Notes under the pieces: model-generated
What the model was told of the DNA's origin: nothing
The model's database searches: none
What the model saw: only the letters and a program-made list of their open reading frames with translations
Source of the DNA: an uncultured Anaerolineales bacterium
GTDB lineage: Bacteria; Planctomycetota; Phycisphaerae; FEN-1346
Length of the DNA: 54,123 bases
Assembly (NCBI GenBank): GCA_964353455.1
Contig: CAYGWP010000534.1
Coordinates: forward strand, 1 to 54,123
Direction of reading: 5' to 3'
Position numbers and translations under genes: made by a program
Part shown: positions 9,934-52,172 of the stretch, piece after piece
How the letters are laid out: every line of letters begins with the position of its first letter
Position numbering within the stretch: the first letter of the stretch is position 1

Positions 9934-9945
9934 GGCGGCGCGCCC

Positions 9946-11433: not shown

Positions 11434-11479
11434 CTTGCTCAGATCAATCTTGCGAGTAAAGAGCATCGGTCCTGGCCCG

Positions 11480-12523
11480 CTACGGCCGCTGCAACATGTA
11501 CGCCAGCGTCAGCGGTACGCTTGTCCCATCACCTCGTTGAAGAGCGTCGAACCCGGCCTCGTAAAGCATCTTGCGACAGGCCGCCATGTCAAGGCCGCGG
11601 TGCTTCTCGGTCTGGAGTTCGGTGTCGCGCGGATTTGCCCCGCTCTCGGCATAGACGACGTTGGCGCCAGCCGCCAGCCCCAGCAGGTTTGGCTCGTGCA
11701 CGGCGATGTTCTTCGTTTCCGGACAGCCAACGCTCGCCAGCGTCACGACGGCAACGATCTCGGCCAGACGGCGCTCGGTGATCTGTCCGTTTGGGCCTAG
11801 CGGCATACCTGGCACATAGACGCGGCGCATCGCTGCGTGCTGGAAGCACCCGTACTCAATCCCCAGGAACATCTGGTCCACGAGTTCCTCCGGGTGATGC
11901 TCCGGGCCGATAGGTTCGCAGCAGTAGTAGAAGTCAAGCCCAGCGTCCTTGATGGCGCGGAAGGTCCGTCTTCTCGCTTGAGGGTCCAGCGACGTGTCTT
12001 GCCCTTCCCGCAAACGACAGACATGGTAGGCCCCATTGACGCCCGCCTCGCTCATCCGGCGGGCTTGCGTCAGATCGAAGTCACCCACATTAACCACAAC
12101 CTGCGTGTGGGAAGGGATCTCTTGCCGGACGGCCGCCACAGTCTCCAACAGCCAGTCCAGGTCAAACTCGTGCATCGTCATCAGAAACAGCGCATACAGG
12201 TCGCCGCCGGCCGCGAAGGCGCGAGCGCGCCGAAGGATCTCATCGAGTGTCAGCCGCTCGGACTCCATGTTGGAGTGGTCTTTCCCGAAGACACAGAACC
12301 CGCAATTGCCCGGGCACGGCGCCGTCTCAATGCCAATCTGTCCGAGCAACATGGCGCGGTTGGTGAAACGCCGGCGCGAAACGCTATCGGCTACCGCCAT
12401 GAGAACCGCCGTCTCCAGCGTGTTCGCCGGTAGGCCCAGCAGGTAAACGCAGTCCCCTCGAGTAGGCGCGGAACCGTCCACGGACTTGCGCAGAATCCGA
12501 TCCAGCCTTTCCGGAAGATGCAT
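11480..12523 (-). CDS. radical SAM protein, BioB/HydE-like layout (paralog of 32123-33268)
   Basis: CPGNCGFC (CxxxCxxC) about 75 aa from the start, with AGGAGA upstream of the ATG at 12523. It aligns along its length with the 32123 protein (shared YHVCRLREG and CEPIGPEH). Confidence 0.75.
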   Translation of the reverse strand: MHLPERLDRILRKSVDGSAPTRGDCVYLLGLPANTLETAVLMAVADSVSRRRFTNRAMLLGQIGIETAPCPGNCGFCVFGKDHSNMESERLTLDEILRRARAFAAGGDLYALFLMTMHEFDLDWLLETVAAVRQEIPSHTQVVVNVGDFDLTQARRMSEAGVNGAYHVCRLREGQDTSLDPQARRRTFRAIKDAGLDFYYCCEPIGPEHHPEELVDQMFLGIEYGCFQHAAMRRVYVPGMPLGPNGQITERRLAEIVAVVTLASVGCPETKNIAVHEPNLLGLAAGANVVYAESGANPRDTELQTEKHRGLDMAACRKMLYEAGFDALQRGDGTSVPLTLAYMLQRP

Positions 12524-12612
12524 CGCGATATCTCCTCTTGCGAGTGTCCAACACAACCCCGGGGCGCGAGTTCGTGCCGCACGCGTGGCCTTTCCCTTAC
12601 CAACGAAGGCCT

Positions 12613-13361: not shown

Positions 13362-13554
13362 TATCGCCGGCTGAATCAGTCTGGCCAGCGTTGCCCCCGA
13401 GCACGGGCACTCGTCCCAGTCTGCCTTCGGAGATCGTCTGCTAGTGGATATTGTCTATTACCTCCGCGGCTGATGCTACCTGCTCGCGGCGGCTTGTCAA
13501 TCGTAAAGCGCGGGCTTCCCGGCCCAGGGCCGCGCCGGCCCTGTCGCCGGCCGG

Positions 13555-14322
13555 TCAGGGGAAGGTCGCTTGCACCGCCGCACCGAGAGTCCAAGTGATG
13601 TGCATATGCGATCCGAACGCGGCGGCGATGTTGTCCGCGGTCAGCACGCTTGGTGCGGAGCCCTCGGCGAGAGTCCGCCCCCCTGCCATCAGCACAGCAG
13701 TGTCCACGTATAGCGGCGCGACAAGGAGGTCGTGACAGACCATGAGGACGGCCAGGCCCTCGGCGGCCAGCGTGCGCACCAGCCGGTAGAGTTCCAGTTG
13801 ATGTGCGATGTCCAGGTGCAGGGCCGGCTCGTCCAGCAGGAGAACGCGGCCCTCCTGGGCCAGGGCGCGGGCAATGACAACCCGCTGCCGCTCACCGCCG
13901 CTGAGGTTTGAGAAGGGGCGATTCGCAAAGTCGGCCACGTTCATTCGCCGCAGGCAGGATTGGACGATCTCTGTGTCTTCCGGCGATTCCTGACCCCAGG
14001 CATCCCAGCGGGCGTAGCGACCGAGCATGACCATCTGGGCCGCCGTGAATGGCACATCAAGTGGGGTGTCCTGTGGCACGACGGCGACCTGGCGGGCGAC
14101 CTCGCGCGGCGTCATGTTGCCGACATTGCTGCCGCCGAGCATCACGCGACCCAACTGCGGCCGCAGCGACCCGTTCATGCAACGCAGGAGCGTGCTCTTG
14201 CCGCACCCGTTAGGGCCGAAGAGGGCCGTGACGCGGCCGGGCGCCACCTCCAACGTCACGTTACGGAGAACGGGATCTCGGGGGTCGTAGCCGAACGTGA
14301 TGTTTTCAGCCCGCAGGTTCAT
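13555..14322 (-). CDS. ABC transporter ATPase, FepC/BtuD-type
   Basis: Walker A GPNGCGKST, signature LSGGERQR, Walker B LLLDEP. Confidence 0.9.
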   Translation of the reverse strand: MNLRAENITFGYDPRDPVLRNVTLEVAPGRVTALFGPNGCGKSTLLRCMNGSLRPQLGRVMLGGSNVGNMTPREVARQVAVVPQDTPLDVPFTAAQMVMLGRYARWDAWGQESPEDTEIVQSCLRRMNVADFANRPFSNLSGGERQRVVIARALAQEGRVLLLDEPALHLDIAHQLELYRLVRTLAAEGLAVLMVCHDLLVAPLYVDTAVLMAGGRTLAEGSAPSVLTADNIAAAFGSHMHITWTLGAAVQATFP

Positions 14323-15347
14323 GCCGCAGGCCTCCCGATGCCGCGCCGCTGCAAGAGCCAGAGAAAGACCGGCGCCCCCACGAGGGCAGTGAGAATGCCG
14401 ACCGGCACCTCGGCCGGGGCGGCAACCGTGCGGGCCAGCGTGTCGGCCACAAGCAGCAGCAGAGCGCCGCCGACGGCACAGGCCGGCACAAGCCCGCGAT
14501 GGCCGGCGCCGATGGCCATGCGCAGAAGGTGAGGCACAATCAGTCCGACGAATCCGATCACGCCCGTGAGGCTGACCGCGACCGATGTGGTGGCGGCCAC
14601 GAGGATCAGAAGCCCGTTCTGCAAACGCCGGACGTTCACGCCCAGGTCCCTGGCCGACCGTTCGCCCACCAGGGCCACGTCCATCGCCGGCGCCAGGAAC
14701 ACCAGCGCCGTGAAGCAAGCGGCCGTCGCGGGAGCCATCACGAGCGCGTCCCGCCACGCGGACTGCCACAGGCCGCCCATCAGCCAGAAGACGAGGGTCT
14801 GCAAGCGTTCGCCGGCCAGGTACAGCGCTGCCGCCGTCAGGGCCGAGCAGAACGCGCTGACGGCAATCCCCGCCAAGAGGAGCGACTGCCCGAAGTGGCC
14901 TCCCCGGCGGGCCAGGATAAAGACCGCGGCCGTGACGGCCAGTCCGGTTGCCACGCTGAAGACCGGCACGGCAGCGAATCCGATCACTCTTCCCACGAGG
15001 AGCATCCCGAAGACGGCCCCGACCGCCGCGCCGCTCGAGACGCCCATGACGTAAGGGCTGGCCAGGGGGTTGCGAAAGAGCGTCTGCGATGCCAAGCCAG
15101 CGAGTCCCATTGCCGCGCCCACCGCCAAGGCCAGGATGATCCGCGGAAGCCGCGTCTCGAAGAGTATCCGCCCGGTCACATCATCCGGCGTTTGGCCGCC
15201 CAGAACCTGCCAGCACTGACGCAGGACCTCCTGGGGCGAGATCGCCGCCCCGCCGACCATGAGCGCCACGAAGGCCGCGAGCAGTGTGGCGGCTCCCAGG
15301 ATGATCAGGACCTGCCGCGGCGATAGGATGTGGGTTTCGTGGGCCAT
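14319..15347 (-). CDS. FecCD/BtuC-type ABC permease
   Basis: ETRLPRIILALAVGAAMGLAG...NPLASPYVMGVSSGAA. ATGA overlap with the ATPase gene. Confidence 0.9.
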   Translation of the reverse strand: MAHETHILSPRQVLIILGAATLLAAFVALMVGGAAISPQEVLRQCWQVLGGQTPDDVTGRILFETRLPRIILALAVGAAMGLAGLASQTLFRNPLASPYVMGVSSGAAVGAVFGMLLVGRVIGFAAVPVFSVATGLAVTAAVFILARRGGHFGQSLLLAGIAVSAFCSALTAAALYLAGERLQTLVFWLMGGLWQSAWRDALVMAPATAACFTALVFLAPAMDVALVGERSARDLGVNVRRLQNGLLILVAATTSVAVSLTGVIGFVGLIVPHLLRMAIGAGHRGLVPACAVGGALLLLVADTLARTVAAPAEVPVGILTALVGAPVFLWLLQRRGIGRPAA

Positions 15348-15355
15348 CGCTTGGG

Positions 15356-16093
15356 CTACGCGATCTCTCGGACGACGAACCGGTCGTCGCGGGCCGAGAG
15401 GTCCAGCGCCTGCTCGCTCGTCAGGTGCGAACTGGCAACCTGGGCGAGGTGCTTGCGGCACGCATCCACGGCCGCCGCCATCTGCTCCTCGGTCGGACGC
15501 GCGTACGGCTGCCCCGGCACGGGGATGTATCCCATGATGTGCAGCGGGATGTCGCGGCTGAGCGCGGCCAACCATGCGGCAATGGCCTCCACCTGGTCAA
15601 GGTCCACGAGGCCCGGTACGTACACGACGTTGGCCCGCAACTCCATGCCGGCGTGAAAGGCCGCGGCGAAGTTCTCGAAGATCGGCCCCTTCTCGCGGCC
15701 CGTGTAGGCAAGGTGGACCTTCTCATCCCACGCCTTGAGGCCCACGTTCGCCCCGTCGAGGTTGGGCAGGGGCAGGCGGCTGCCGTTCGTGTGGCCCAGG
15801 AAGGTCCGGGCATTCAGTTCGTTCTTGGCGAACTCAAGGATCACGGGCAGTTCGGAAGCAACCGTTGGCTCACCGCCCATGAAGTAGACCTTGTCCACAG
15901 CGACCGAATTCAGGGCGTAGCGGACCTGGCAAGGGGTGAGGAACCGCTCGGGCTTGGGATGGGCCTGCCCGGAGTGTCCGTCGGGGCCGCTGCGCAGTTT
16001 GTAACTGCACACCGGGCACCGGAACGTACACCCGAAGTTGTGGACCGTCGCAAAGTGGTACTTCTCGTGGTAGGTGACTTTGTAGAACGCCAT
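15356..16093 (-). CDS. small radical SAM protein (PflA/NrdG activase-like class)
   Basis: FGCTFRCPVCSY (CxxxCxxC) at residues ~21-28; 245 aa. It sits between the binding-protein and permease genes. Confidence 0.75.
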   Translation of the reverse strand: MAFYKVTYHEKYHFATVHNFGCTFRCPVCSYKLRSGPDGHSGQAHPKPERFLTPCQVRYALNSVAVDKVYFMGGEPTVASELPVILEFAKNELNARTFLGHTNGSRLPLPNLDGANVGLKAWDEKVHLAYTGREKGPIFENFAAAFHAGMELRANVVYVPGLVDLDQVEAIAAWLAALSRDIPLHIMGYIPVPGQPYARPTEEQMAAAVDACRKHLAQVASSHLTSEQALDLSARDDRFVVREIA

Positions 16094-16095
16094 GT

Positions 16096-17022
16096 TTACC
16101 GCCGTTCTTGTCGTGAGACGCCGGCAAGGGTGCTGTGAATCTCCGCTACGGCTTCGGGAAGGTGCGGGCCGGCCACAAGCCATCGCCGGTCAACCGGGAA
16201 AATGCGCCCCAGCCGCACGGCCGTCAGGCCGGCCATGCCGGGGCGGCTGGCGACTTCGCCGGCGTCGGCGAAACCCTCGGCAAACAGGATCACGTCCGGG
16301 TCGGCCTGGATGAGCCGCTCGGCCGAGAGCAGGGCCTTCCCGGTGATATCGCCGGCGATGTTGTCCGCGCCAGCCAGTGCCAGCAGGTCGCTCATGTACG
16401 AGTCGCGGCCGACGGTCCTGAAGGGGCCGTAGAGTTCCAGGTACACGCGCGGTCTGCCGGCTGGCAACGGGAGGCCCGATGCGGCGCGGTCAAGAAACTC
16501 CTCTACGCCCCGGGCCAGGGGCTCGGCCGCCTTCCGCCGGTTCAGGCACTCGCCGACCAAGCGGATCATGGGCGGGATTTCTGCGGCGCGATCGGTGCGA
16601 ACCCGCACGACTGGCACTGAAAGCCCCTTCAACATCGCGGCGGCATCGTCCTGATACCACCACACAAACGCCAAATCGATGCCGAGCGCCAGCACCGCCT
16701 CGCGCGAGATGGCGCTGCCCTTGCCGACAACCTGCGCGCGTTCCACGCCCGGCACGACGCGGCCGTACTCGTCAATTGCCGCAAGGCGGGCGGCTTCCCC
16801 CAAGACTGCCAGCGTGTCGTTGGCCGAGGTGCAGAGGCTCAGGATGCGGGCGGGGTCGGCCGACACGCGGACCGTGCGCCCTGTCATATCGACGACCTCG
16901 CGGCCGGATTCCTCGATCACAGGCGCTGGCGTCTCGGCGCTCCGTGCCGCCAGCCACACGGCCCCGACCAGCATCAGCACCGAGGCTCCGGCCGCCAAGA
17001 TGACCTGGGCCTTGCGGCTCAC
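16096..17022 (-). CDS. periplasmic binding protein, FecB/BtuF-type (class III)
   Basis: The GTG start at 17022 overlaps the upstream stop codon (GTGA). Hydrophobic N-terminus followed by RILSLCTSANDTLAVLG...DPDVILF. Confidence 0.8.
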   Translation of the reverse strand: MSRKAQVILAAGASVLMLVGAVWLAARSAETPAPVIEESGREVVDMTGRTVRVSADPARILSLCTSANDTLAVLGEAARLAAIDEYGRVVPGVERAQVVGKGSAISREAVLALGIDLAFVWWYQDDAAAMLKGLSVPVVRVRTDRAAEIPPMIRLVGECLNRRKAAEPLARGVEEFLDRAASGLPLPAGRPRVYLELYGPFRTVGRDSYMSDLLALAGADNIAGDITGKALLSAERLIQADPDVILFAEGFADAGEVASRPGMAGLTAVRLGRIFPVDRRWLVAGPHLPEAVAEIHSTLAGVSRQERR

Positions 17023-30129: not shown

Positions 30130-31509
30130 ATGAAACAACGTTCCCACGACCGCTTGCCCGAGTCCGTCACAGACGCCATTCTGGAGAGCATTTCCGACGG
30201 CGTTTTCACGGTGGACCACGAGTGGCGGATCACGTCGTTCAACCGGGCCGCGGAGGAAATCACCGGCGTGCCGCGCCAGGAGGCCGTCGGAAGGCGATGC
30301 AGCGAGGTCTTCCGGGCCAGCATGTGCGAGGCTGACTGCGCCCTGCGCCGCACGATGGCAAGCGGCAAGCCCGTGGTCAACCAGACGGGGTTCATCGTGG
30401 ACTCTGAGGGACGGCGGATTCCGATCAGCGTCTCTACCGCCCTGCTGCGCGACGGCCGCGGCAAGGTCGTCGGCGGCGTCGAGACGTTCCGCGACCTGAG
30501 CATCGTTGAGGAACTCCGCAAGGAACTCGAAGGGCGCTTTGAACTGGGCGACATGGTCAGCCGCAGCCCCGCCATGCACCGCCTCTTTGACCTCCTCCCC
30601 CAGGTGGCGGCCAGCGGCAGCACCGTGCTGGTCCAGGGCGAAACGGGCACGGGCAAGGAACTGCTTGCCCGGGCGATCCATTCGCTCAGCCCCCGCCGCG
30701 AGAAGCCGTTCGTGGCGGTCAACTGTGGTGCCCTGCCCGACACGCTCCTGGAATCGGAACTCTTCGGCTACAAGGCGGGGGCCTTCACGGGCGCCGGAAA
30801 GGACAAGCCCGGCCGGTTTGCCCTGGCCGAGGGGGGCACGATCTTCCTGGACGAGATCGGCGACGTGAGCCCGGCCCTCCAGGTCCGGCTGTTGCGATTC
30901 CTGGAGGGGCGAACGTACGAACCGCTGGGCGGAACCCAATCCGTTCAGGCCGACGTTCGAGTCGTGGCCGCCACGCATCGGGACCTTGCCGCCCTGGTCA
31001 AGGATGGGGCATTCCGGCAGGACCTGTTCTACCGGATCAATGTCGTGCGGCTGGAACTGCCCCCGCTCCGCCAACGCAAGGCCGACATCCCGCTGCTGGT
31101 CGAGCGGTTCGTGGGGCGCCTGAACCGGCTTCGTGGGCGGTCGGTGCCTGGCGTCAGCCGCGACACGCTCGCCATCCTCATGGCCCACGACTATCCCGGC
31201 AACATCCGCGAACTGGAGAACGTGATGGAGCACGCCTTCGTCCTGTGCGGCGAGGGCCCCATTGAGCCGTCCCACCTGCCGGACGACCTGATGGCCCGCG
31301 CGCCGCCGAAGGCGCGGCGTACCGACCTTCGCGGGTCGGTCCGGGCCGCCGAGGCCCAGTCCATCCTGGATGCCCTGAAGCGGAACCACTTTAACCGGTT
31401 GGCCGCGGCGCGGGAACTGGGCATGCACAAGACCACGCTGTTCCGGAAGATCAAGGCGCTGGGTCTGAACCTGCCCGAGACGGACGGCCGTTCAGGACCA
31501 GGGGCGTAG
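30130..31509 (+). CDS. sigma-54-dependent transcriptional activator with an N-terminal PAS domain carrying a Cys-rich motif
   Basis: PAS domain (ISDGVFTVDHEWRITSFN), motif RRCSEVFRASMCEADC, AAA+ Walker A GETGTGKE, GAFTGA loop, and a Fis-type HTH (AARELGMHKTTLFRKIKALG). Confidence 0.9.
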   Translation: MKQRSHDRLPESVTDAILESISDGVFTVDHEWRITSFNRAAEEITGVPRQEAVGRRCSEVFRASMCEADCALRRTMASGKPVVNQTGFIVDSEGRRIPISVSTALLRDGRGKVVGGVETFRDLSIVEELRKELEGRFELGDMVSRSPAMHRLFDLLPQVAASGSTVLVQGETGTGKELLARAIHSLSPRREKPFVAVNCGALPDTLLESELFGYKAGAFTGAGKDKPGRFALAEGGTIFLDEIGDVSPALQVRLLRFLEGRTYEPLGGTQSVQADVRVVAATHRDLAALVKDGAFRQDLFYRINVVRLELPPLRQRKADIPLLVERFVGRLNRLRGRSVPGVSRDTLAILMAHDYPGNIRELENVMEHAFVLCGEGPIEPSHLPDDLMARAPPKARRTDLRGSVRAAEAQSILDALKRNHFNRLAAARELGMHKTTLFRKIKALGLNLPETDGRSGPGA

Positions 31510-31659: not shown

Positions 31660-31675
31660 TGGCACGCGTATTGCT
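31660..31675 (+). promoter_or_regulatory. sigma-54 promoter (-24/-12)
   Basis: TGGCACgcgtaTTGCT matches the TGGCAC-N5-TTGC consensus. It lies 28 nt upstream of the ATG at 31703 and directly downstream of the activator gene. Confidence 0.7.
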
Positions 31676-31702: not shown

Positions 31703-32083
31703 ATGCGTGTTGCACTGACAGCCTGGGACGGTCGGATCTCGCCGGTGTTCGACACCGCGCGCCACCTCCAGATCGTGGATGTGGAGGGCGGTCTGCCGAT
31801 GGGGCGCGTTGAGGAACCGCTGGAAGAGTGCCTTCCGGACCGAAGGGTCGCACGATTGGGCGCGCTCAAAGTGGATGCTCTGATCTGCGGGGCCATCTCC
31901 CGGCCGCTGGCCGACATGGTCCAGACTGCCGGCATCCAATTGGTGCCCTTCGTCGCCGGACCGGTCGAGGAAGTGCTGCACGCCTTCGTGAACGGCTCGC
32001 TGCCGACGGGCATGTTCCAGATGCCGGGCTGTTGCGGCGGGCGCCGCCGGTTCCGGGGTCAGCGTGGCTGGCGTATGGCATGA
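31703..32083 (+). CDS. NifX/NifB-C-terminal-like (dinitrogenase FeMo-cofactor-binding fold) protein with a Cys/Gly/Arg tail
   Basis: MRVALTAWDGRISPVFDTARHLQIVD...ALICGAISRPL...IQLV. The tail reads MPGCCGGRRRFRGQRG. Confidence 0.75.
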   Translation: MRVALTAWDGRISPVFDTARHLQIVDVEGGLPMGRVEEPLEECLPDRRVARLGALKVDALICGAISRPLADMVQTAGIQLVPFVAGPVEEVLHAFVNGSLPTGMFQMPGCCGGRRRFRGQRGWRMA

Positions 32084-32122
32084 GGCCGCAACCCGGCTGT
32101 CTGTCCAAGGAGGACGCGAAAG

Positions 32123-33268
32123 ATGCCTCGAGGCGAAGGAATCGGGCCCTACGGGCCAGGAAGACCGGCCGACGCCGATCTCGCTTGGCGATTCTGGGAC
32201 AGCGGCCCTGTGCCCACGCGCCTTGCAGAGATCCTTGGTCGTGCAATGGCGAGTGAAGGGCCATCGAAGGAGGACTGCATTTATCTACTCTGCTTTCCAG
32301 AGCGCTCCATCGAGGCGGGGATGATCCGCACCGTGGCGGACGCGGTCTCCCGGAAACGTTTCGGGAACGAGGCGATGCTGCTGGGGCAGATCGGCGTGGC
32401 TATGGCCCCCTGTGACGGCGGATGCGCGTTCTGCGCCTTTGCCAAGCCTCATACGACGATCCGGGAGTCCACCCTCTCGGTCGAAGAGACGATCGAGAGG
32501 GCCATCGCCTTTGAACGTGGGGGCGTGGCCGGCATCTTCATCATGACCATGCACTATTTCGGCTTCGAATGGTTCCTCGACCTGGTGTCGCGCGTCAGCA
32601 AGGCCCTTCCGGCTGAAACGAGACTGCTGGCGAACATCGGCGACATCGACGCCGCGCAGATGCAGGCCCTCAAGGACGCAGGGCTGACGGGCGCCTACCA
32701 TGTCTGCCGCCTGCGCGAAGGGATCGATACCCACATGACCCCCCGGCAGCGGATCCGCACCATTGAGTGTGTCCGCGAAACGGGGCTGGACTGGTACAAC
32801 TCCTGCGAGCCGATCGGACCGGAGCATACTCCGGAGGAACTGGCCGAGCAGATCCACCTCGGACGGGAACTGGGCTGCGCCCAGCACGCGGCGATGCGAA
32901 GGTTCCCCGTGCCGGGTTCGCCCCTGTTCCGTCACGGGCAGGTCTCGCTCTCGCGACTTGCCCAGATCGTGGCGATCATCTCGTTGGCCACTCTTGAGTC
33001 GAAGACCGTTCGAAGCATCGCCGTGCACGAACCCAATCTTCTTGGGCTCATGAGCGGTGCAAATGCCCTCTACCCGGAGGCAGGGGAGCCTGATCCTGCA
33101 CCCGAAGGCGCCCCTCTGACAGGACACGAGGCGACGGAAGGATTCAGTTCGGCCCTTTGGCGGCGCACTCTGGAGATCACCACGGCCGATTGTCGGAAGA
33201 TGCTCCTGGAGACGGGCTTCACGACTCTTCGACGTGGCAACGGAACGACGGTGCCTCTGAAACTGTGA
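32123..33268 (+). CDS. radical SAM protein, BioB/HydE-like layout, with an N-terminal MPRGEGIGPYGPG extension
   Basis: AAGGAGGA upstream of the ATG; CDGGCAFC motif. Paralog of 11480-12523, but with about 30 extra N-terminal residues that resemble the DUF5320 N-terminus. Confidence 0.8.
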   Translation: MPRGEGIGPYGPGRPADADLAWRFWDSGPVPTRLAEILGRAMASEGPSKEDCIYLLCFPERSIEAGMIRTVADAVSRKRFGNEAMLLGQIGVAMAPCDGGCAFCAFAKPHTTIRESTLSVEETIERAIAFERGGVAGIFIMTMHYFGFEWFLDLVSRVSKALPAETRLLANIGDIDAAQMQALKDAGLTGAYHVCRLREGIDTHMTPRQRIRTIECVRETGLDWYNSCEPIGPEHTPEELAEQIHLGRELGCAQHAAMRRFPVPGSPLFRHGQVSLSRLAQIVAIISLATLESKTVRSIAVHEPNLLGLMSGANALYPEAGEPDPAPEGAPLTGHEATEGFSSALWRRTLEITTADCRKMLLETGFTTLRRGNGTTVPLKL

Positions 33269-33280
33269 AGGAGACAAGCC

Positions 33281-33526
33281 ATGCCAGGTGGAGATGGAAC
33301 GGGTCCGATGGGAATGGGACCGATGTCCGGTCGAGGCGCGGGATTCTGCGGCGGCTTCGGCGTGCCGGGGTCCGCCAATCCGGTGATGGGTCGTGGTCGC
33401 GGCGGCCGGGGGCGCGGCCTCGGCCGTATGTTCTGGGCGGCGGGGGTTCCGGTCTGGGCCCGCCTTGGCTGGGGCGCGCTATCATACGCCTTCGGGCCCC
33501 CCACGCCGGAAGTCGAACGCGAGACG
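33281..33526 (+). repeat. near-identical duplicated segment (pairs with 34499-34744)
   Basis: Hand alignment gives about 16 mismatches in 246 nt between the 5' parts of A1 and A2. Confidence 0.85.
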
Positions 33527-33619
33527 CTGAAGCAACAGATGGGTGCCATGGAGGCCCAGTTGGACGCCATCAAGCGGCGGCTTGAAGAACTCCAAGGCAG
33601 CCAGACCAAGGAAGACTGA
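33281..33619 (+). CDS. DUF5320-type protein, coiled-coil class (A1)
   Basis: MPGGDGTGPMGMGPMSGRGAGFCGG...GRGRGGRGRG... with a C-terminal heptad-like EAQLDAIKRRLEELQ. AAGGAGA Shine-Dalgarno upstream. Confidence 0.8.
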   Translation: MPGGDGTGPMGMGPMSGRGAGFCGGFGVPGSANPVMGRGRGGRGRGLGRMFWAAGVPVWARLGWGALSYAFGPPTPEVERETLKQQMGAMEAQLDAIKRRLEELQGSQTKED

Positions 33620-33761
33620 AAGCCGAACCCGCTGGGAAGTAAGGGCGAGAGAGAGGCGGCAGTGCGGGCCCTTGCACGGCCTCTCTCCACCCTCTATCCC
33701 CCGGCCGCCGCCAGAGGCAGTCACGCACAAGTGCGGTGCGGGGGCTGATGGCGGCAGGCGA

Positions 33762-33944
33762 GTGGGCCCTTGCGGCCGCGGCTTCGGCGGTCGAGGACGC
33801 GGACGGATGGGTGGGCCGTTCGGCGCTGGGCCGAGCGGGATGTGCGCGTATCCGAAGTGCGGGCATGGTGAACCGCACCGGCGCGGTGAGCCGTGCAACC
33901 GGAAGTCCTGCCCGGAGTGTGGGACGAAGCTGACCAGAGCGTGA
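33762..33944 (+). CDS. DUF5320-related zinc-ribbon protein (B1), 5'-truncated relative to B2; start uncertain (GTG 33762 or ATG 33807), possibly decaying
   Basis: ...GPSGMCAYPKCGHGEPHRRGEPCNRKSCPECGTKLTRA aligns with the B2 C-terminus. No MPRGDGTGP start is present in this frame. Confidence 0.45.
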   Translation: MGPCGRGFGGRGRGRMGGPFGAGPSGMCAYPKCGHGEPHRRGEPCNRKSCPECGTKLTRA

Positions 33945-33969
33945 AAACCTTATTACAGGGAGATTAGTC

Positions 33970-34152
33970 ATGCCAAGAAATGATGGAACTGGTCCGACCG
34001 GGCAAGGGTCCAGCACCGGCCGCAGGCGCGGTCCTTGCGGCGGTGGAAAGCGAAAGGGGCCATCGGCTGGAGCCAGCAAACGGCGAGGGCGAGGCCAAGG
34101 GCAAGGCGGGAAGGGACGCGGCTCGGGCCGTGGCCAAGCGGGCGGCCGTTAA
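33970..34152 (+). CDS. small Arg/Gly-rich protein with a DUF5320-type N-terminus (C)
   Basis: MPRNDGTGPTGQGSSTGRRRGPCGGGKRKG...GRGSGRGQAGGR, with GGGAGA upstream of the ATG. Confidence 0.5.
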   Translation: MPRNDGTGPTGQGSSTGRRRGPCGGGKRKGPSAGASKRRGRGQGQGGKGRGSGRGQAGGR

Positions 34153-34185
34153 ACAAGAATTACAAATAGAGAAAGGAGAATAGAA

Positions 34186-34512
34186 ATGCCCGGGTTTGGA
34201 TCCCCCTTTGCCGGGGTGGCACACGACAGAAAACTAACCGATGAAGAACTAATCCGTGCCATACGTTTCATGGTGGCTGCAGAGTACGAGGCGATTCAGT
34301 TGTACATGCAACTCGCCGAGTCAATAAACAACAAGCTCGCCATCGAAGTGCTCAAGGACATAGCGGACGAGGAACGCGTTCACGCTGGCGAGTTCATGAG
34401 ACTCCTCCGCGAGATTGCCCCTGACGAGCAAGAGCACTATGCCAAGGGTGTAGCGGAAGTTGAAGAGGAAATCGAAAAGCTGAAGAAAGGAGACAGCAAT
34501 GCCAGCGGGTGA
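34186..34512 (+). CDS. small ferritin-like protein (single E...ExxH half-site, EncFtn/rubrerythrin-like)
   Basis: LTDEELIRAIRFMVAAEYEAIQLYMQLA...VLKDIADEERVHAGEFMRLLREI, with AAGGAGA upstream of the ATG. Family placement is by recall. Confidence 0.65.
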   Translation: MPGFGSPFAGVAHDRKLTDEELIRAIRFMVAAEYEAIQLYMQLAESINNKLAIEVLKDIADEERVHAGEFMRLLREIAPDEQEHYAKGVAEVEEEIEKLKKGDSNASG

Positions 34513-34834
34513 TGGAACGGGTCCGATGGGAATGGGACCGATGTCCGGTCGAGGCGCGGGGTTCTGCGGGGGCCTCGGTGTGCCGGGGTACGCCAATCCG
34601 GTGATGGGTCGCGGTCGCGGCGGCCGGGGGCGCGGCCTCGGCCGCATGTTCTGGGCGGCGGGGGTTCCGGGCTGGGCCCGCCTCGGATGGGGCGCGCTAT
34701 CGTACGTCTTCGGGCCGCCCACGCCGGAAGTCGAACGCGAGACGCCGTGTTCCCAGGCCGAGTACTTCGGCAACGCCCTTGAAGAAATCCGCAAGCGGAT
34801 CGAGGAACTTGAGTCTGAGGCAGAGAAGAAGTAG
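34499..34834 (+). CDS. DUF5320-type protein, coiled-coil class (A2)
   Basis: MPAGDGTGPMGMGPMSGRGAGFCGG... with a C-terminal AEYFGNALEEIRKRIEELESE. The ATG overlaps the last 14 nt of the ferritin-like gene. Confidence 0.8.
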   Translation: MPAGDGTGPMGMGPMSGRGAGFCGGLGVPGYANPVMGRGRGGRGRGLGRMFWAAGVPGWARLGWGALSYVFGPPTPEVERETPCSQAEYFGNALEEIRKRIEELESEAEKK

Positions 34835-34970
34835 GCATACCGCAGAAGGGTGCTGGGTGAGGGCGCGCAGGTAACGGGGGCGGATGGCGGCACGCGCGGG
34901 CCCTTGCGGCCGCGTCCGCCCTCTAGCCCGCGCCATCGCAGCCACGGACCAGGTATGGAGAGGTGATGTC

Positions 34971-35225
34971 ATGCCACGAGGCGATGGAACAGGACCGTTC
35001 CGACAAGGCCCCGGTTTGGGCCGAGGCGGCGGCGCAGGCGGCAGAGGCCGCGGCCTGGGCGCCGGCGGGCCGGGGCGCGGACGCCTACGGGGTCCTTTGG
35101 CCGCCGGGCCGGGCGGCACGTGCGTGTGCCCTCAGTGCGGCACGACGGTTCGCCACGAGCGGGGCGTGCCGTGTGCCCAGATGAAGTGCCCGAAGTGCGG
35201 CGCGGCCATGACGCGCCAGGCGTGA
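34971..35225 (+). CDS. DUF5320-related zinc-ribbon protein (B2)
   Basis: GGAGAGG 7 nt upstream of the ATG. Reads MPRGDGTGPFRQGPGLGRGGG...TCVCPQCGTTVRHERGVPCAQMKCPKCGAAMTRQA. Confidence 0.7.
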   Translation: MPRGDGTGPFRQGPGLGRGGGAGGRGRGLGAGGPGRGRLRGPLAAGPGGTCVCPQCGTTVRHERGVPCAQMKCPKCGAAMTRQA

Positions 35226-35572: not shown

Positions 35573-35755
35573 ATGCCGGGACTCGACGGGTACAACCTCG
35601 GGCATGGGGCGCGTCCGGCGCGAGACGGCGTTCCGCGTTGCCGCGGCCAGTGCGTGTGCCCGCTGTGAGGGACAACCGCCCCCCGTGAGCGCGGTGTGCC
35701 CTGCGCGCAGCAGAAGTGTCCGCAATGCGGGGCGCGCTTGACCAGGCAGGCCTAG
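35573..35755 (+). CDS. candidate selenoprotein: DUF5320-related zinc-ribbon paralog (B3) with an in-frame TGA at 35666-35668
   Basis: [62 protein letters not shown]. The TGA aligns with a Cys in CPQCG of B2, and conservation continues to the TAG at 35753. Confidence 0.6.
35686..35709 (+). other. candidate SECIS-like stem-loop downstream of the TGA
   Basis: UG(A)GCGCGG-[UGUGC]-CC(U)GCGC(G)CA. It has 8 base pairs with one bulged U and one A/G mismatch, starts 18 nt after the TGA, and places its loop 27-31 nt after the TGA. Folded by hand only. Confidence 0.35.
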
Positions 35756-35911
35756 CGGCCGGTTAAGGCGGACATCGGGCGCCGCGGTTCAGGCGTAGCG
35801 TGACGCGATGAGGAGGCGGCCCGATCAACCAGCCGCACGGGCGTCCACAAGACATAGCCGTTGGCACACCGCCAGCGGGGAACCCAGTGTGCGTGGAGAG
35901 GAGACGCGACG

Positions 35912-36268
35912 ATGGCCAGATCAGCGAAAGAAGTTCTCGCGGAGTTTCAGGCCAACCTGCCCAAGATGCAGAAGGCCATCCCCCAGGTGACGGACGACTT
36001 CGTCAAGAGGCTGATGCCCGATGTGTTGAATGACGGCGTGCTGACGACGAAGCAGAAGGAACTGATCGCGCTCGGGATAGCCGTCTGCGCGACCTGCGAC
36101 TATTGCATCGCCATCCACGTCAAGAAGTGCTTCGACGCAGGTGCCACGAAGGCAGAGATCGCGGAGGCCTGCGGCGTGGCCATCCTGATGGGCGGCGGCC
36201 CGGCGCTGACTTACTCCGCCTTCGTCTTCCAGGCCATCGAGGAGATGGCCCCAGGGACGGCCGTTTAA
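35912..36268 (+). CDS. carboxymuconolactone decarboxylase / AhpD-like protein
   Basis: KQKELIALGIAVCATCDYCIAIHVKK (CxxC...H core), with GGAGAGGAGA upstream of the ATG. Confidence 0.8.
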   Translation: MARSAKEVLAEFQANLPKMQKAIPQVTDDFVKRLMPDVLNDGVLTTKQKELIALGIAVCATCDYCIAIHVKKCFDAGATKAEIAEACGVAILMGGGPALTYSAFVFQAIEEMAPGTAV

Positions 36269-36372
36269 CATCCGGCGGCAAGACGCTCGAATCGTAGGCC
36301 GGCCCCGTTCCGGTCGCGCCGCGTGCCAGAGTCGGCGCGGGTGCTGAGCCTTGACAGTGGCGGAGTGGCGGG

Positions 36373-36922: not shown

Positions 36923-38788
36923 ATGATACTCGCCGTGGCGAGCGGAAAAGGCGGGACAGGCAAGACGTTCATCGCCACCAATCTGGCGGCGGCCATGGGC
37001 GCCGCTTACGTGGACTGCGACGTGGAGGGCGCCAACGGCCACATCTTCTTCAGACCCGAGATTGCCGTGCGCCGGCCGGCCGCCATCGACGTGCCGCAGG
37101 CCTCCGACGCCTGCACTGGTTGCGGGGCTTGTGCCATGGTCTGCCGGTTCGGCGCCTTGGCGGCCCTGAAGTCGGGCGTCCTGGTTTTCAACGAACTGTG
37201 TCACTCGTGCGGGGCGTGCTTGGAGGCATGCCCGTCGCACGCCCTCCGGTGGACGAAGCACGTGCTGGGGCACGTGCGGCTCGGACGTTGCCGCGCGGGG
37301 CGCGGCCAGTGGCTGCCCTTTGCCGACGGCGAGTTGGCGGTCGGGCAGATCCGCGCCTCGGCCGTCATCCGGCAGGTCAAGCAAGCCGTCGGTGCGGTCG
37401 CGCGCACGATCATCGACTGCCCGCCGGGGGCCTCGTGCGCAGTGGCCGAGGCCGTCCGCGGGGCCGACCTGTGCCTCTTGGTGACGGAACCGACGCCGCT
37501 CGGCCTCTCGGACCTCGGCAAGGCCCTCGCACTGGCTCGCCATCTGGGGGTGCCCTGCGGCGTGGTCCTGAACCGCGGCGGCCTGACCGGGGTGGACGTG
37601 GGGGCGTTTTGCCGCGAGCACGAGGTGCCGCTGGTTGCGACCTTCCCCTATGACCAGGGCGTGGCGCGCCTCTACGCCGAAGGCCGCCTCGTCGTCGAGG
37701 AATTGGCCGGCTGGCGCCGGCAGTTTGAAACGCTGGCCGCGGAGGTCCTTGCAATGGCGTCGTGCCCCCCGGCACACCGGGCCGAGGCATCGGCCGTGGC
37801 CAGAACACTCGCCGGGGCTGAGGAGCCATCTGCCGCCGGCCCGTCGCGGCCGCGGGAAGATGCGTTTCAGGTGGTGATCCTGAGCGGCAAAGGCGGAACA
37901 GGAAAGACCTGCCTGGCCTCATCCCTGGCTGTGATGGGAGGGAGCGTGGTGGCTGCCGACGCCGACGTCGATGCGGCCAACCTGCACCTGGTGCTGAAGG
38001 TCAATGGCGAGCGGCAGGTGCCCTTCAGCGGCGGGCACGTGGCGGCGATAGACCCCGCCAGATGCCGGGGCTGCGGCGTCTGCGCCAACGAGTGCCGCTT
38101 CGAGGCCATCGCACTCGGGGAGCACGCCATTGTCGATCCCTTGAAGTGCGAGGGGTGCGGCCTGTGCGCCCTGGTGTGCCCCTTGGCAGACACCGACGAG
38201 CAGCCCGTCCGGCTCCTCCCCCGTCTCTCTGGCTATGCTTATGTGGGGGACCTGCCCAACGGCGCGCTGGCGCGCGGCGAGTTACTGCCCGGGGGCGAGG
38301 CTTCCGGCAAACTCGTGACGCTCGTCCGGCGGATGGCCGACGCGCGGGCGGCCGACACCAGCCACTTACGGATGATCATCGACGCGTCGCCCGGCATGGG
38401 GTGTCCCGTCAACGCCAGTCTGACCGGCTGCGACTGGGCCATTGCCGTCACCGAGCCGACGCAGAGCGGCCTGCACGACCTGCGCCGGGCTCTGGACCTG
38501 GCGGCGTGGTTCAAGGTCCCCGCCGCCGTCGTCATCAACAAGGCCGACCTGTGCCCGGAAGTGGCGGCCGAGATTCGGGCCGCATGCGGGGAGCGGGGTG
38601 TCGAGATCATCGGCGAGATTCCTTTCGACCGGCACGTGCCCGAAGACCTGGCGTTGGGCCGGGCTCCGGTTCTTGGGAGCGGAGGCGCCGCCACGGCGTT
38701 GCGCGAGGTATGTCGTGTCATTTGGAGTCGCCTGGCAGTGTCCAAGGATCAGAGGAGAGCGAACCGTGAAAGTATGCCTACCCGCTGA
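36923..38788 (+). CDS. fusion of two MinD/ParA-type P-loop ATPases, each with an inserted 4Fe-4S ferredoxin domain (COG1149-like x2)
   Basis: Two GKGGTGKT Walker A motifs (residues ~8 and ~318). Ferredoxin motifs CTGCGACAMVC / CHSCGACLEACP and CRGCGVCANEC / CEGCGLCALVCP. Confidence 0.85.
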   Translation: MILAVASGKGGTGKTFIATNLAAAMGAAYVDCDVEGANGHIFFRPEIAVRRPAAIDVPQASDACTGCGACAMVCRFGALAALKSGVLVFNELCHSCGACLEACPSHALRWTKHVLGHVRLGRCRAGRGQWLPFADGELAVGQIRASAVIRQVKQAVGAVARTIIDCPPGASCAVAEAVRGADLCLLVTEPTPLGLSDLGKALALARHLGVPCGVVLNRGGLTGVDVGAFCREHEVPLVATFPYDQGVARLYAEGRLVVEELAGWRRQFETLAAEVLAMASCPPAHRAEASAVARTLAGAEEPSAAGPSRPREDAFQVVILSGKGGTGKTCLASSLAVMGGSVVAADADVDAANLHLVLKVNGERQVPFSGGHVAAIDPARCRGCGVCANECRFEAIALGEHAIVDPLKCEGCGLCALVCPLADTDEQPVRLLPRLSGYAYVGDLPNGALARGELLPGGEASGKLVTLVRRMADARAADTSHLRMIIDASPGMGCPVNASLTGCDWAIAVTEPTQSGLHDLRRALDLAAWFKVPAAVVINKADLCPEVAAEIRAACGERGVEIIGEIPFDRHVPEDLALGRAPVLGSGGAATALREVCRVIWSRLAVSKDQRRANRESMPTR

Positions 38789-39128: not shown

Positions 39129-39156
39129 CAGGGCAAAGCAACCACGACATGGAGAA

Positions 39157-40383
39157 ATGATGGAACCGAAACAACACAGTCACTGCGGGGGAACGTGCGA
39201 TGCCGACCCGCGCAAGGAAACCGAGCGCCGCCGCGATGAGAACCTGCGGCACATCCGCCGCGTCGTCGCCGTCATGAGCGGCAAGGGCGGCGTCGGCAAG
39301 AGCACCATTGCCGCGTCGCTGGCCCTGAGCCTGGCGCGCCTGGGTCACAAGACCGGCCTGCTGGACGTGGACTTCCACGGCCCTAGCGTGCCGACGCTCC
39401 TGGGCATCCGCGAAGTGCGCGCCGCTTCCGACGGAGGACAACTCCAGCCCGTCCGCTTGGGCTGCAACCTGGGCGTCATGAGCCTGGGGCTCCTCCTGGC
39501 CGAGGGTGACCAGGCCGTCATCTGGCGCGGGCCGATGAAGATCGGCGTCATCGACCAACTACTGGGCGAGGTGGCCTGGGGCGACCTGGACTTCCTTGTC
39601 CTCGACTGCCCGCCCGGCACGGGCGACGAACCGCTCACGATCGGCCAGGTCGTGCCGGCGGCGGAGGTGGTCATGGTCGGCACACCCCAGGAGGTGGCGA
39701 TGGCCGACGTCCGGAAGGCCGTCTCGTTCTGCGAGCAACTCGGCCTGGCGGTCCTCGGCCTCGTGGAGACGATGGGGATGATGCGGTGCCCGACGTGCGG
39801 GGCCCAGGTGCCGCTCTTCCGCCGCGCCAAGGACGCGAGGCCGCCCGAGGTCCGGCTGCTGGCCGAAATCCCGTTCGACGCGGCTCTCCAGGCAGCCTGC
39901 GATCAGGGGCGCCTGGAAGCGTTCCTTGACGAGCAAAGCCCCACCGCCGAAGCCCTGATGGCCCTGGCCCGCGAGGTGGCCGGTCAGGCCCCCGCAACGG
40001 CACCACAAGCAACGGTCTCAGAAAACCCTATCCAAGGAGGTAACGGTAACATGCGCTACGCGATTCCCACAGAAGACGGCCGGTTGACCGCGCACTTCGG
40101 ACACGCCGGTGTGTTCACATTGATTGATGTTGAGAATGGCCAGGTCTGCCGCACGCAGGCGGTGAACCCGCCGCCTCACGAGCCGGGCGTGCTGCCCCGG
40201 TGGCTGAAGGAGCAGGGCGTCAACGTGATTATCGCCGGCGGCATGGGCCAGCGGGCACAGGCCCTGTTTGCCGAAAACGGGATTCAGGTCGTCGTCGGCG
40301 CCGAGGCCGCCCCGGTCGAGGACCTCGTGCGGCAGCACCTGGCCGGCGCTCTGAAGACCGGCGAGAATGTCTGTGACCATTGA
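39157..40383 (+). CDS. Mrp/NBP35/ApbC-type Fe-S cluster carrier ATPase fused to a C-terminal NifX-like domain
   Basis: VMSGKGGVGKST, DCPPGTGDE and CPTCG. The C-terminal domain reads MRYAIPTEDGRLTAHFGHAGVFTLIDVE...VIIAGGMGQRA. Confidence 0.85.
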   Translation: MMEPKQHSHCGGTCDADPRKETERRRDENLRHIRRVVAVMSGKGGVGKSTIAASLALSLARLGHKTGLLDVDFHGPSVPTLLGIREVRAASDGGQLQPVRLGCNLGVMSLGLLLAEGDQAVIWRGPMKIGVIDQLLGEVAWGDLDFLVLDCPPGTGDEPLTIGQVVPAAEVVMVGTPQEVAMADVRKAVSFCEQLGLAVLGLVETMGMMRCPTCGAQVPLFRRAKDARPPEVRLLAEIPFDAALQAACDQGRLEAFLDEQSPTAEALMALAREVAGQAPATAPQATVSENPIQGGNGNMRYAIPTEDGRLTAHFGHAGVFTLIDVENGQVCRTQAVNPPPHEPGVLPRWLKEQGVNVIIAGGMGQRAQALFAENGIQVVVGAEAAPVEDLVRQHLAGALKTGENVCDH

Positions 40384-42045: not shown

Positions 42046-43437
42046 GTGGTTGAATACGTGTACGGCCCCGTGTTTTCTCGCCGCTTGGGCCGTTCGCTCG
42101 GCGTTGACCTGGTACCGCTTAAGATCTGCACGTATGACTGCGTTTACTGCCAACTGGGCCGGACGACGAACAAAACCCTCGAACGAAGGGAATACGTGCC
42201 CCTGCCGGACGTTCTGTCCCAACTGGACCGCCGGTTGCGGGACAAACCGGCACTGGACTTCATCACCCTGGCAGGCTCGGGCGAACCCACCTTGTACGCG
42301 CGGCTCCCCGAGGTGATCCGCGCCGTCAAGCAGCGGACGGCAACGCCGCTGGCCGTCTTGACCAACGGCTCTCTTCTGTGGGACCCCCAGGTGCGGGATT
42401 CCCTGCGGGAAGCCGACCTCGTCATCCCGTCACTGGACGCCGGGAACGAGCGGATCTTCCAGTACGTGAACCGCCCCCACGAAGATATCGCATTTGAGAA
42501 GATGGTAGATGGCCTCGTTGCCTTCCGGCATGAGTTTGTCAAGCCCATCTGGCTTGAGGTCTTCCTCCTTGGGGGCATTACGGCTATCGATGTCGAGGTA
42601 CAGAAGATGGTCCACCTCGTTGACCAAATCAGGCCGGACCGTGTGCAGTTAAACACCGTGGCGCGTCCGCCGGTCGAGGCCTTCGCGATTCCGGTCCCCG
42701 ATGACCAGTTGCGCGCGCTGGCCGCGATGTTCGGCCACCGGGGCGAGGTCATCGCCGCCCGGCCGGACACGGGTGGCACGACGCTTCGCCCTGCAACGGA
42801 AGCCGACATCCTGAACCTGCTCCGTCGGCGTCCGTGTACGCTTCGCGACTTGGCCGACGGACTGCGCCTGCATCCCGCTGAAGCCATGAAGCAGATCGAC
42901 CACCTCCTGGCAGGCGGCCTCCTGACGGCCGCCTCGGAGGGCGGACATATCTTCTACCGCGCGCCCCACAACTTCCTTGCGTCGCCGAAGACCCAACTCG
43001 ACACGGCAGAACACCGTGTGGAGGAGTCCGGGGCTTTCTGGGACGAGGATATGATGGATGTGCCCGAGGAGTATTCCGCCCTGGCCGTCGAGCGGTTCTA
43101 TGATCCTCGTAACCGAGGCCCCATGACGGCGCCCGATGGCCACGCCGTAATCACGGGGCCCTGTGGCGACACGATGGAGATCTGGCTGCGAGTGGCAAAC
43201 GGGCGGATCAGCCAGGCCACCTTCACGACCGACGGCTGTGGCCCCTCGCTCGCCAGCGGAAGCATGGCGACAGAATTGGCCGGCGGCAAGACCCTTGACG
43301 AGGCGGCGCGGATCGAGCAACAAGACATCCTGGACACCCTGGGCGGCCTGCCGGAAGGATCCCGGCATTGCGCGCTTCTGGCCGCCAACACGCTTAAGGC
43401 CGCCATCGAGAATTTCAGAAACCGGCGGGCGGAGTGA
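42046..43437 (+). CDS. radical SAM protein fused to a C-terminal IscU/NifU-N-like scaffold domain
   Basis: GTG start with AAGGAG 7 nt upstream. YGPVFSRRLGRSLGVDLVPLKICTYDCVYCQLG, and a C-terminal GPCGDTMEIWL...TTDGCGPSLASGS...RHCALLAANTLKAA. Confidence 0.8.
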   Translation: MVEYVYGPVFSRRLGRSLGVDLVPLKICTYDCVYCQLGRTTNKTLERREYVPLPDVLSQLDRRLRDKPALDFITLAGSGEPTLYARLPEVIRAVKQRTATPLAVLTNGSLLWDPQVRDSLREADLVIPSLDAGNERIFQYVNRPHEDIAFEKMVDGLVAFRHEFVKPIWLEVFLLGGITAIDVEVQKMVHLVDQIRPDRVQLNTVARPPVEAFAIPVPDDQLRALAAMFGHRGEVIAARPDTGGTTLRPATEADILNLLRRRPCTLRDLADGLRLHPAEAMKQIDHLLAGGLLTAASEGGHIFYRAPHNFLASPKTQLDTAEHRVEESGAFWDEDMMDVPEEYSALAVERFYDPRNRGPMTAPDGHAVITGPCGDTMEIWLRVANGRISQATFTTDGCGPSLASGSMATELAGGKTLDEAARIEQQDILDTLGGLPEGSRHCALLAANTLKAAIENFRNRRAE

Positions 43438-52085: not shown

Positions 52086-52172
52086 CGCAGTAGCATCCTA
52101 ACCCATCCTCAACACCAAATCCAGCCCATGTCCAGCCTCGCGGGTCCATGAAGCCCAAGCGGCTCTGAGATG

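Follow-up and report, generated by a model that had tools for sequence, protein, structure and literature searches.

A radical SAM enzyme in an orange-protein-type gene cluster bears a small-protein N-terminus that is probably a gene-fusion scar

Why should an enzyme and several otherwise different small proteins begin with the same few residues? The question is raised by contig CAYGWP010000534.1 from an uncultured Anaerolineales bacterium, analysed as one stretch of 54,123 nucleotides with 65% G+C (hereafter the window). An open reading frame (ORF) at 32123..33268 on the + strand encodes a radical S-adenosylmethionine (SAM) enzyme of 381 residues with an ATG start, and its N-terminus reads MPRGEGIGPYGPGRPADADLAWRFWDSGPV followed by PTRLAEIL. 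The first residues, MPRGEGIGPYGPG, are here called the head. They resemble the N-termini of four small proteins encoded downstream, namely A1 (MPGGDGTGP), A2 (MPAGDGTGP), B2 (MPRGDGTGP) and C (MPRNDGTGP). The original prediction, made from the letters of the DNA, took this sharing to suggest a common docking or targeting peptide. The answer reached here is different: the N-terminal extension of the enzyme is probably the scar of a gene fusion, with the head carried along as a passenger. The most informative evidence comes from sister contigs in which the same start opens another gene.

The observations on which the prediction was built are sound. The letters and a profile agree that the ORF at 32123 opens with a motif of the small-protein type, behind a strong Shine-Dalgarno sequence (AAGGAGGA, 32107-32114 on the + strand, read directly, 8 nucleotides 5' of the ATG). 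The motif is common to the four small proteins as claimed, and the looser version, MPGLDGYNLG at 35573, is present in a gene called B3, which carries an in-frame stop. A paralogous radical SAM gene at 11480..12523 on the - strand, 49% identical to the enzyme, starts MHLPERLDRIL and is without the extension of about 30 residues. The paralogue N-terminus aligns to enzyme residues 29-39, and the extension comes to about 29-30 residues.

The strength of the match was measured with a position matrix covering residues 2-14 and made from 141 family N-termini that had been gathered by full-length protein searches and not by the motif. The enzyme N-terminus scored +19.5 bits and the heads of A1, A2, B2 and C 34.7-37.6 bits. 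Among 3,703 other peptides anchored at start codons in all six frames of the window, the highest score was -3.6 bits (mean -39, standard deviation 8.8). The likeness between the enzyme head and the small-protein heads is one of descent and not of chance, and over the first 13 residues or so the head can be regarded as the same element in both.

The match ends there. It is limited to enzyme residues 1-13 or 1-14; a local profile of 54 A-type proteins aligns positions 1-14 and gives the enzyme N-terminal peptide 7.7 bits. The enzyme has the head only, and the TGRGxGxC segment that follows it in the family, the Arg/Gly-rich linker, the coiled coil and the ribbon are all missing. The full enzyme gives no match to DUF5320 (PF17253; Pfam gathering score 27 bits) at E<=0.01, and the N-terminal 40 residues of the window enzyme and of its counterpart on a related contig, L005, give none at E<=10. 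In length too the enzyme, with 381 residues, stands apart from the DUF5320 proteins and their Cys-rich B-type relatives, which have at most 149 residues among the genomic matches listed and typically about 60-150. Set against the family pattern M-P-R-G-D-[GR]-T-G-P-x-G-x-G-P, the head itself is altered (MPRGEGIGPYGPGR). E5 and I7 each occur in about 1 of the 141 family heads; position 5 is D in 131 of them (93%) and position 7 is T in 134 (95%). Arg3 is present in 131.

The source of the head came to light in metagenome contigs, three of which, L129, L130 and L131 (samples Ga0315294, Ga0315285 and Ga0315277), matched a degenerate DNA pattern that encodes MPxG[DE]GxGPYGPG. In each of them the NifX-like gene, the spacer, the Shine-Dalgarno sequence and the ATG of the window open an intact 67-residue gene, B0. 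Its product begins MPRGEGIGPYGPGRPAGAGR, sharing the head peptide of the enzyme, and continues into a Cys-rich zinc ribbon; the sequence is MPRGEGIGPYGPGRPAGAGRGQRRRGVGPRGEC(L/V)(R/C)P(Q/K)CGHRQPH(E/G)RGQPC(G/S)QQVCVKCGARMVRSQE. The ribosome site before the ATG is CCAAGGAGG in L005, L129 and L130 and TTCAGGAGG in L131. By its sequence, B0 is a normal and complete member of the widespread B-type family.

The boundaries of the exchanged segment were placed by alignment. BLAST identity between the window and L129-L131 is 88.7-93.0% in the left flank up to 32177, where L130 is as close to the window as L005 is. There is no homology over 32178-33279, and it is back at 33280, at A1, with 92.4-94.0% identity. 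A multiple alignment of the window with L005, L129, L130 and L131 places the left breakpoint just past codon 20 (about 32177-32184) and the right one where A1 has its ribosome site and ATG (about 33270-33280). The captured head (MPRGEGIGPYGPGRPADADL, 32123..32183, +), consisting of the start codon and codons 1-20, is orthologous to the 5' end of B0, with the same genomic position, the same ribosome site and the same start codon; enzyme residues 1-16 are identical to B0. The zinc-ribbon part that forms the C-terminal end of B0 is not in the enzyme, and radical SAM sequence runs instead from codon 21. The window has no B0 as a separate gene and no copy of the B0 tail besides those in the B-type genes B1, B2 and B3, and no radical SAM homologue is found on L129-L131, including the 12.2-kb L130. 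These alignments make it highly probable that the head derives from the 5' end of B0, captured by the enzyme gene. A recent DNA duplication of the 5' end of A1, A2, B2 or C was also considered as the source and was rejected, the DNA likeness being just what the shared peptide demands and the source being B0.

Between the captured head and the conserved core of the enzyme lies a junction segment, AWRFWDSGP (32184..32209, +; codons 21-29). It has no counterpart in B0, diverges fully from L129-L131 and is shared with L005. It is the fastest-changing stretch between the window and L005, with three amino-acid changes in nine codons. Several homologues of the enzyme carry 8-11 residues before the conserved [IVL]PxRL, and thus the segment may be a remnant of the enzyme's own N-terminus from which the native start was removed. 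It is probably what remains of the N-terminus or leader of the incoming radical SAM gene. The alternative that AWRFWDSGP is left over from the motif in the centre of DUF5320 (WRNRFYATGLPGW) was rejected, as the profile of 54 A-type proteins aligned residues 1-14 only.

The following sequence of events would account for these features. In a recent ancestor B0 would have been the first gene after the NifX-like gene. A BioB/HydE-like radical SAM cassette (about 32184-33270) would then have replaced, in frame, codons 21-67 of B0 together with the 100-nucleotide spacer before A1. The enzyme would thereby have taken over the sigma-54-driven operon position of B0, its Shine-Dalgarno sequence, its ATG and its first 20 codons, followed by nine codons of the former enzyme N-terminus or leader, with the conserved core from about residue 30. 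The direction of change follows from B0 being a complete member of a large, widespread family, so that the intact state would be ancestral and the fusion derived.

The distribution of the extension among enzyme homologues is equally restricted. A search gave 1,099 homologues at E<=1e-10, and the best 119, with 52-70% identity, were inspected. The motif is at the N-terminus of none of the 119. These proteins have 2-11 residues before [IVL]PxRL and align from about residue 20-30 of the enzyme. It had been said beforehand that a tag should be conserved in orthologues and might co-occur there with DUF5320 neighbours. A single near-identical relative, on L005, has the extension, and no co-occurrence is seen even in L001 and L006, where a DUF5320 gene is present in an ORP-type (orange-protein-type) cluster. 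By that yardstick the step from a shared start to a common docking or targeting peptide mostly fails. The extension is confined to the enzyme's own 90% cluster, which consists of the window protein and P0122 on L005. L005 comes from a different sequencing run (SRR18214733), is 92.7% identical to the window in DNA, and has a 381-residue ORF with the same junction and the same ribosome site. Since an independently assembled contig shares the junction, an assembly artefact is ruled out. P0122 begins MPQGEGIGPYGPGRPADADRAWRFRDRVPV and has lost the conserved Arg3 (R3Q).

Is the head selected on the enzyme? Among the three intact B0 genes, codons 1-20 show no amino-acid change. In the two fused genes there are four, of which G17D and G19D are shared, R20L is in the window and R3Q in L005. 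Between the window and L005 there are 3 synonymous and 5 non-synonymous changes in the 30 codons of the extension, and 34 synonymous and 30 non-synonymous changes in the 351 codons of the core. These counts point towards relaxed constraint after the fusion, and the head is possibly already decaying. On the folded barrel it would form a disordered, hanging tail. The reading in which the enzyme carries the head as a passenger, and in which the head is no selected trait of this family of enzymes, is likely, and is held a shade less firmly than the fusion-scar reading as a whole.

Several points weigh against this account. The difference of four changes against none is small and not statistically significant. 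The frame is still open and the window keeps residues 1-16 unaltered; as the sequences diverge by only about 7%, this says little in either direction, and selection on the head is conceivable. The donor of the cassette was not found, the nearest homologues being at most 70% identical and the paralogue in the window 49%. A history in two steps is also possible: B0 and the enzyme were first neighbours, a deletion then joined them in one lineage, and the other lineage lost the enzyme. What is concluded about the head would not differ.

To weigh a function for the head, the small-protein family has to be considered in its own right. When 185,579 reference genomes were scanned for the exact sequence MPRGDGTGP, at least 120 loci with at least 127 matches were found, six of the matches listed being spurious Streptomyces frames. 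The 121 real genes among the matches listed all encode proteins of at most 149 residues. At least 36 of them have a coiled coil, 52 a Cys-rich ribbon and 3 a 2x[4Fe-4S] ferredoxin; 24 are Arg/Gly/Gln-rich only or unclassified, and 6 are cut by contig ends. The consensus head of the A-type proteins is MPRGDGTGPMGMGP, in which A1 has G3. A 32-column profile of the four heads retrieved 2,514 clusters (50% identity). No protein among the best 150 of these is longer than 261 residues, and the longer ones among 12 inspected were two-headed tandems or mis-called starts. Within 8 kb at the 114 loci listed, the most frequent neighbour is the COG1149 ATPase (52 loci), followed by Mrp (32), a NifX-like gene (25-30), a NifU-type radical SAM protein (21) and DUF134 (19). 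The BioB-like family to which the enzyme belongs is found at none of the 114; the NifU-type protein corresponds to the radical SAM part of another gene of the window, at 42046-43437. In the full-text literature, a search for DUF5320 gave just two mentions, both incidental.

The heads are also found in composite proteins. In the ORFs P0286-P0294 and P0370, a unit of about 55-70 residues with the pattern MPxFDGTGPxGQGPMTGRGxGFC continues, with no stop codon, into a further MPRGDGTGP unit. In the sequences inspected, KEVxxM is a common junction, such as a ribosome-binding site would yield if read in frame, and these ORFs may be true tandems or two genes without a stop between them. In L045, L061 and L094 the head is fused to the 2x[4Fe-4S] ferredoxin. 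In P0175 and P0185 a DUF134 DNA-binding-like domain replaces the MPRGDGTGP head before a B-type ribbon. The Arg/Gly-rich middles of the family recall, as an analogy only, IssA, the cationic, glycine-rich tail of which has been proposed to bind anionic thioferrate (PMC5524996).

From its position, predicted disorder, conservation and neighbourhood, the head would be a short linear motif that small Fe-S or metal-handling proteins carry at their free N-terminus. A docking role is plausible at the level of this family, and the MinD/ParA-like ATPases are its most likely partners, as candidates. MinE, ParB and ParG engage ParA/MinD-type ATPases by flexible N-terminal peptides. The heads of the small proteins share with these peptides their place at the extreme N-terminus, their predicted disorder, a nearly invariant Arg and a frequent location beside MinD/ParA-like ATPases. 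They differ in having no sequence similarity to them, and on the enzyme the head appears as a recent hitch-hiker.

The best-surviving alternative to the passenger reading is that the head is functional on the enzyme too, docking on or engaging an ATPase, and that the fusion was kept because it tethers the enzyme to the COG1149 or MrpORP ATPases. The family features fit this: the head is strongly conserved and modular, standing at the extreme N-terminus of at least four small-protein layouts in bacteria and archaea; it is predicted to be disordered in B2, as a linear motif would be; and its genes lie near the candidate partners at the frequencies given above. In addition the fused ORF has stayed intact in two lineages. 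The evidence from the enzyme itself points the other way. The fusion is limited to one shallow clade and would have originated by an accidental cassette replacement. The head carries the two rare residues E5 and I7 and is without the TGRGxGxC segment, and in the relative on L005 Arg3 is already gone. Furthermore, no enzyme is found among the sampled head carriers, that is, the 121 listed genes and the best 150 of the 2,514 clusters. A tag kept for tethering is accordingly judged unlikely, and a recruitment role of the head on the enzyme has the same small chance or slightly less. The docking peptide suggested by the original prediction is better described, on the enzyme, as the leftover 5' end of B0, absent from the 119 homologues. 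A wider form of the idea, in which MPRGDGTGP is a widespread, undescribed linear motif that docks on and perhaps switches ORP-type MinD/ParA-like ATPases, and in which the fusion was kept to deliver the enzyme there, would be a little more doubtful still.

The least probable alternative is that there is no extension, the true start being GTG 32210 (V30) and the upstream 87 nucleotides a dead in-frame remnant of B0. V30-P-T-R-L-A-E-I-L does align with the first residues of the paralogue and of some homologues, P0002 (MRLPERLVRIL) among them, and the predicted folded core begins at residue 31. But ATG 32123 with AAGGAGGA, which would be inherited from B0, is the proven start context of a conserved gene that is intact in the sister genomes; the frame from this ATG has no stop before 33266. 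The GTG has just GGGA on its 5' side and no comparable ribosome site, either in the window or in L005. The homologues that begin 8-11 residues before [IVL]PxRL are also relevant, as the native start may have gone with the fusion. The upstream ATG, as had been proposed, is the best start, and a real start downstream of it is improbable. As ATG 32123 is the working start of conserved B0 and no stop follows, the fusion protein would be made whenever the operon is expressed. Translation of the enzyme as a fusion from the upstream ATG is very likely; GTG 32210 is a possible original or internal start, and a minor internal start there could exist beside the ATG.

The enzyme to which the head was joined has a well-defined core. 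The radical SAM core (32210..33268, +) is a full TIM barrel of the BioB/HydE/PylB type and matches Pfam PF04055 with 30.4 bits against a cut-off of 29.5. The CxxxCxxC motif consists of C97, C101 and C104 and is invariant in 74 aligned homologues. An AlphaFold model from this 74-sequence alignment has a mean predicted local distance difference test score (pLDDT) of 87.6. The score is 36 for residues 1-10, 47 for residues 11-20 and 59 for residues 21-30, and it is 97 from residue 31. Residues 1-30 are thus predicted to be disordered, which agrees with the earlier view that the head is not a catalytic element.

A Foldseek search with the model gave E = 2e-19 and a template modelling (TM) score of 0.70-0.79 to Veillonella parvula biotin synthase and Thermotoga maritima HydE. 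The enzyme resembles the BioB/HydE/PylB clade in its CxxxCxxC motif and its full (beta-alpha)8 barrel (TM 0.70-0.79 to 8vdw, 5few and 3t7v) and has weak matches to the bioB, PylB, MqnE and CofH models of NCBIfam. It differs in being 16-19% identical to the solved structures, and its homologues often lie beside methyltransferase, ARMT1-like, CGGC and NUDIX genes in ORP-type clusters. Against the bioB model TIGR00433 it scores 35.4 bits, where the equivalog cut-off is 225. The enzyme falls far short of every NCBIfam equivalog cut-off and is therefore placed in an uncharacterised family; where homologues are called 'biotin synthase', the label is automatic annotation.

The genes around the enzyme form an ORP-type cluster. 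At 30130..31509 (+) is an OrpR-like sigma-54 enhancer-binding protein with PAS_4, Sigma54_activat (229 bits) and HTH_8 matches, that is, a PAS domain, an AAA+ activator and a Fis-type helix-turn-helix (HTH). It is 95% identical in L130, and its start codon is uncertain, the ORF opening at 29896. A candidate sigma-54 promoter-like site, TGGCACGCGTATTGC (-24/-12), lies at 31660..31674 (+), 29 nucleotides before the ATG of the NifX-like gene. It matches the consensus and is the only exact TGGCAC-N5-TTGC in the 54-kb window. The first gene of the operon, at 31703..32083 (+), encodes a NifX/NafY-like protein of the orange-protein type (PF02579, Nitro_FeMo-Co, 39.3 bits) and is conserved directly upstream of the shared start in L005, L129, L130 and L131.

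Downstream of the enzyme are the small genes. A1 (33281..33619, +) is a DUF5320 protein with a coiled-coil C-terminus (Pfam DUF5320, 102 bits), 95% identical in L129 and L130. B1 (33753..33944, +), detected by tblastn with B0, is a 5'-truncated B-type zinc-ribbon fragment without an MPRGDG start. C (33970..34152, +) is an Arg/Gly-rich protein of 60 residues that matches DUF5320 positions 1-50 with 32 bits and is conserved in L005. A ferritin-like gene of the EncB family follows at 34186..34512 (+), with 99.1 bits to NCBIfam EncB_fam against a cut-off of 90 and a match to Pfam Rubrerythrin; a homologue 75% identical to it is found in a like cluster of a Sedimentisphaerales genome (L016, 4807-5121). 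A2 (34499..34834, +) is a second DUF5320 coiled-coil protein (88.8 bits).

B2 is the intact B-type gene (34971..35225, +; the start is 34971, not 34968). Its product has the head peptide MPRGDGTGPFRQGP, an Arg/Gly-rich linker and a Cys-rich, zinc-ribbon-like end, and has 201 homologues of 64-86 residues that are built alike. In a structural model of B2, residues 1-45 are of low confidence and predicted to be disordered, and the ribbon has a pLDDT of 77-90. B3 (35573..35749, +), detected by a motif scan and by tblastn with B0, is a decayed B-type gene that reads CVCPL, then an in-frame stop, then GTTAPRERGVPCAQQKCPQCGARLTR.

Two ATPase genes complete the cluster. The first, at 36923..38788 (+), encodes a COG1149-type, two-in-one MinD/ParA-like ATPase with 4Fe-4S inserts (Pfam CbiA, ParA and four Fer4 matches) that combines Orp3-like and Orp4-like parts. 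These halves are fused in the window, L038 and L045 and are two genes in L001, L006, L016 and L018. The second, at 39154..40383 (+), is MrpORP, an Mrp/NBP35 ATPase with a NifX-like domain, which scores 470.2 bits against the NCBIfam MrpORP equivalog cut-off of 450 and matches Pfam ParA and Nitro_FeMo-Co; its start is uncertain, the ORF opening at 38890. Beyond it, the gene at 42046-43437 joins a MoaA/viperin-like radical SAM domain to a MarR-like HTH and a NifU_N domain. Other metal-handling genes around the cluster are ZnuA/ABC-3, FeoAB, two molybdate-type binding proteins, Fur and catalase.

In Desulfovibrio the ORP system consists of a complex of Orp3, Orp4, Orp5, Orp8 and Orp9 under the control of OrpR and sigma-54 (PMC6345978, PMC8359166, PMC3897727). 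The window shares with the cluster of D. vulgaris Hildenborough the PAS-containing sigma-54 activator, the consensus sigma-54 site, the NifX-like gene, the COG1149 ATPase with its ferredoxin inserts and MrpORP. It differs in that its genes lie in one co-directional array, in that Orp3 and Orp4 are fused, and in having extra cassettes: the radical SAM gene, several DUF5320-type genes, the EncB-like ferritin and a CMD gene. An assignment of Orp5 (DVU2105) as a DUF5320 protein was tried and not confirmed. A search with a Solidesulfovibrio A-type protein gave only 43 relatives, none from D. vulgaris, and the gene of that protein adjoins DUF134, not orp genes. Dde_3197 has been likened in the literature to NifX-like proteins.

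A compartment or scaffold had also been named as a possible partner of the head. The head does recall the tags of encapsulins and microcompartments, being a short terminal peptide on otherwise different proteins, and the cluster has an EncB-family gene. However, the ferritin-like protein of the window is itself without the head, and about 60 window ORFs that were scanned, small or unscanned ORFs lying outside that scan, gave no Linocin_M18/encapsulin or bacterial microcompartment (BMC) match. Known encapsulin loading peptides are mostly C-terminal.

The locus appears to be in flux. B1 is truncated and B3 is stopped, so several paralogues of the small family are decaying there. L130 is without the segment at about 26.4-30.2 kb and the radical SAM gene of the window, and also without 33781-34874 (the B1 tail, C, the ferritin-like gene and A2) and 35643-36358 (the B3 tail and the CMD gene). 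L005 is without A1 and the 5' part of B1. The repeated heads and Arg/Gly-rich stretches may be the sites of a recombination that drives such cassette differences among relatives.

Two other regions of the window are described for completeness. At 7458-16183 on the - strand, the paralogue of the enzyme lies among genes for a cysteine desulfurase-like protein (7458-9611), an AIR-synthase-related protein (9946-11052) and a DGC-domain protein (12613-13149), together with an ABC/FecCD transporter and a small radical SAM protein (15356-16183); this is possibly a second cluster for metal or cofactor maturation. At the end of the window, at 50526-54088 (-), are genes for an Eco57I-like methylase and for a large serine recombinase, a hint that a mobile element or an island border lies there.

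What looked like a targeting tag is thus probably explained as a recent, in-frame capture of the start of a neighbouring gene. The locus would be a clean and datable case in which a single step gave an enzyme gene a foreign N-terminus together with a promoter and a ribosome site, and it cautions that a shared terminus in a single genome is no proof of function. The more valuable lead is the small-protein family itself, with about 2,500 clusters (at 50% identity) in anaerobic bacteria and archaea, in which an almost invariant nonapeptide stands on at least four different bodies, often beside MinD-like Fe-S ATPases that belong to the orange-protein system, itself poorly understood. If it is true that the head is a docking peptide, the fused and unfused sister strains would provide a natural comparison, in effect a tag-swap experiment.

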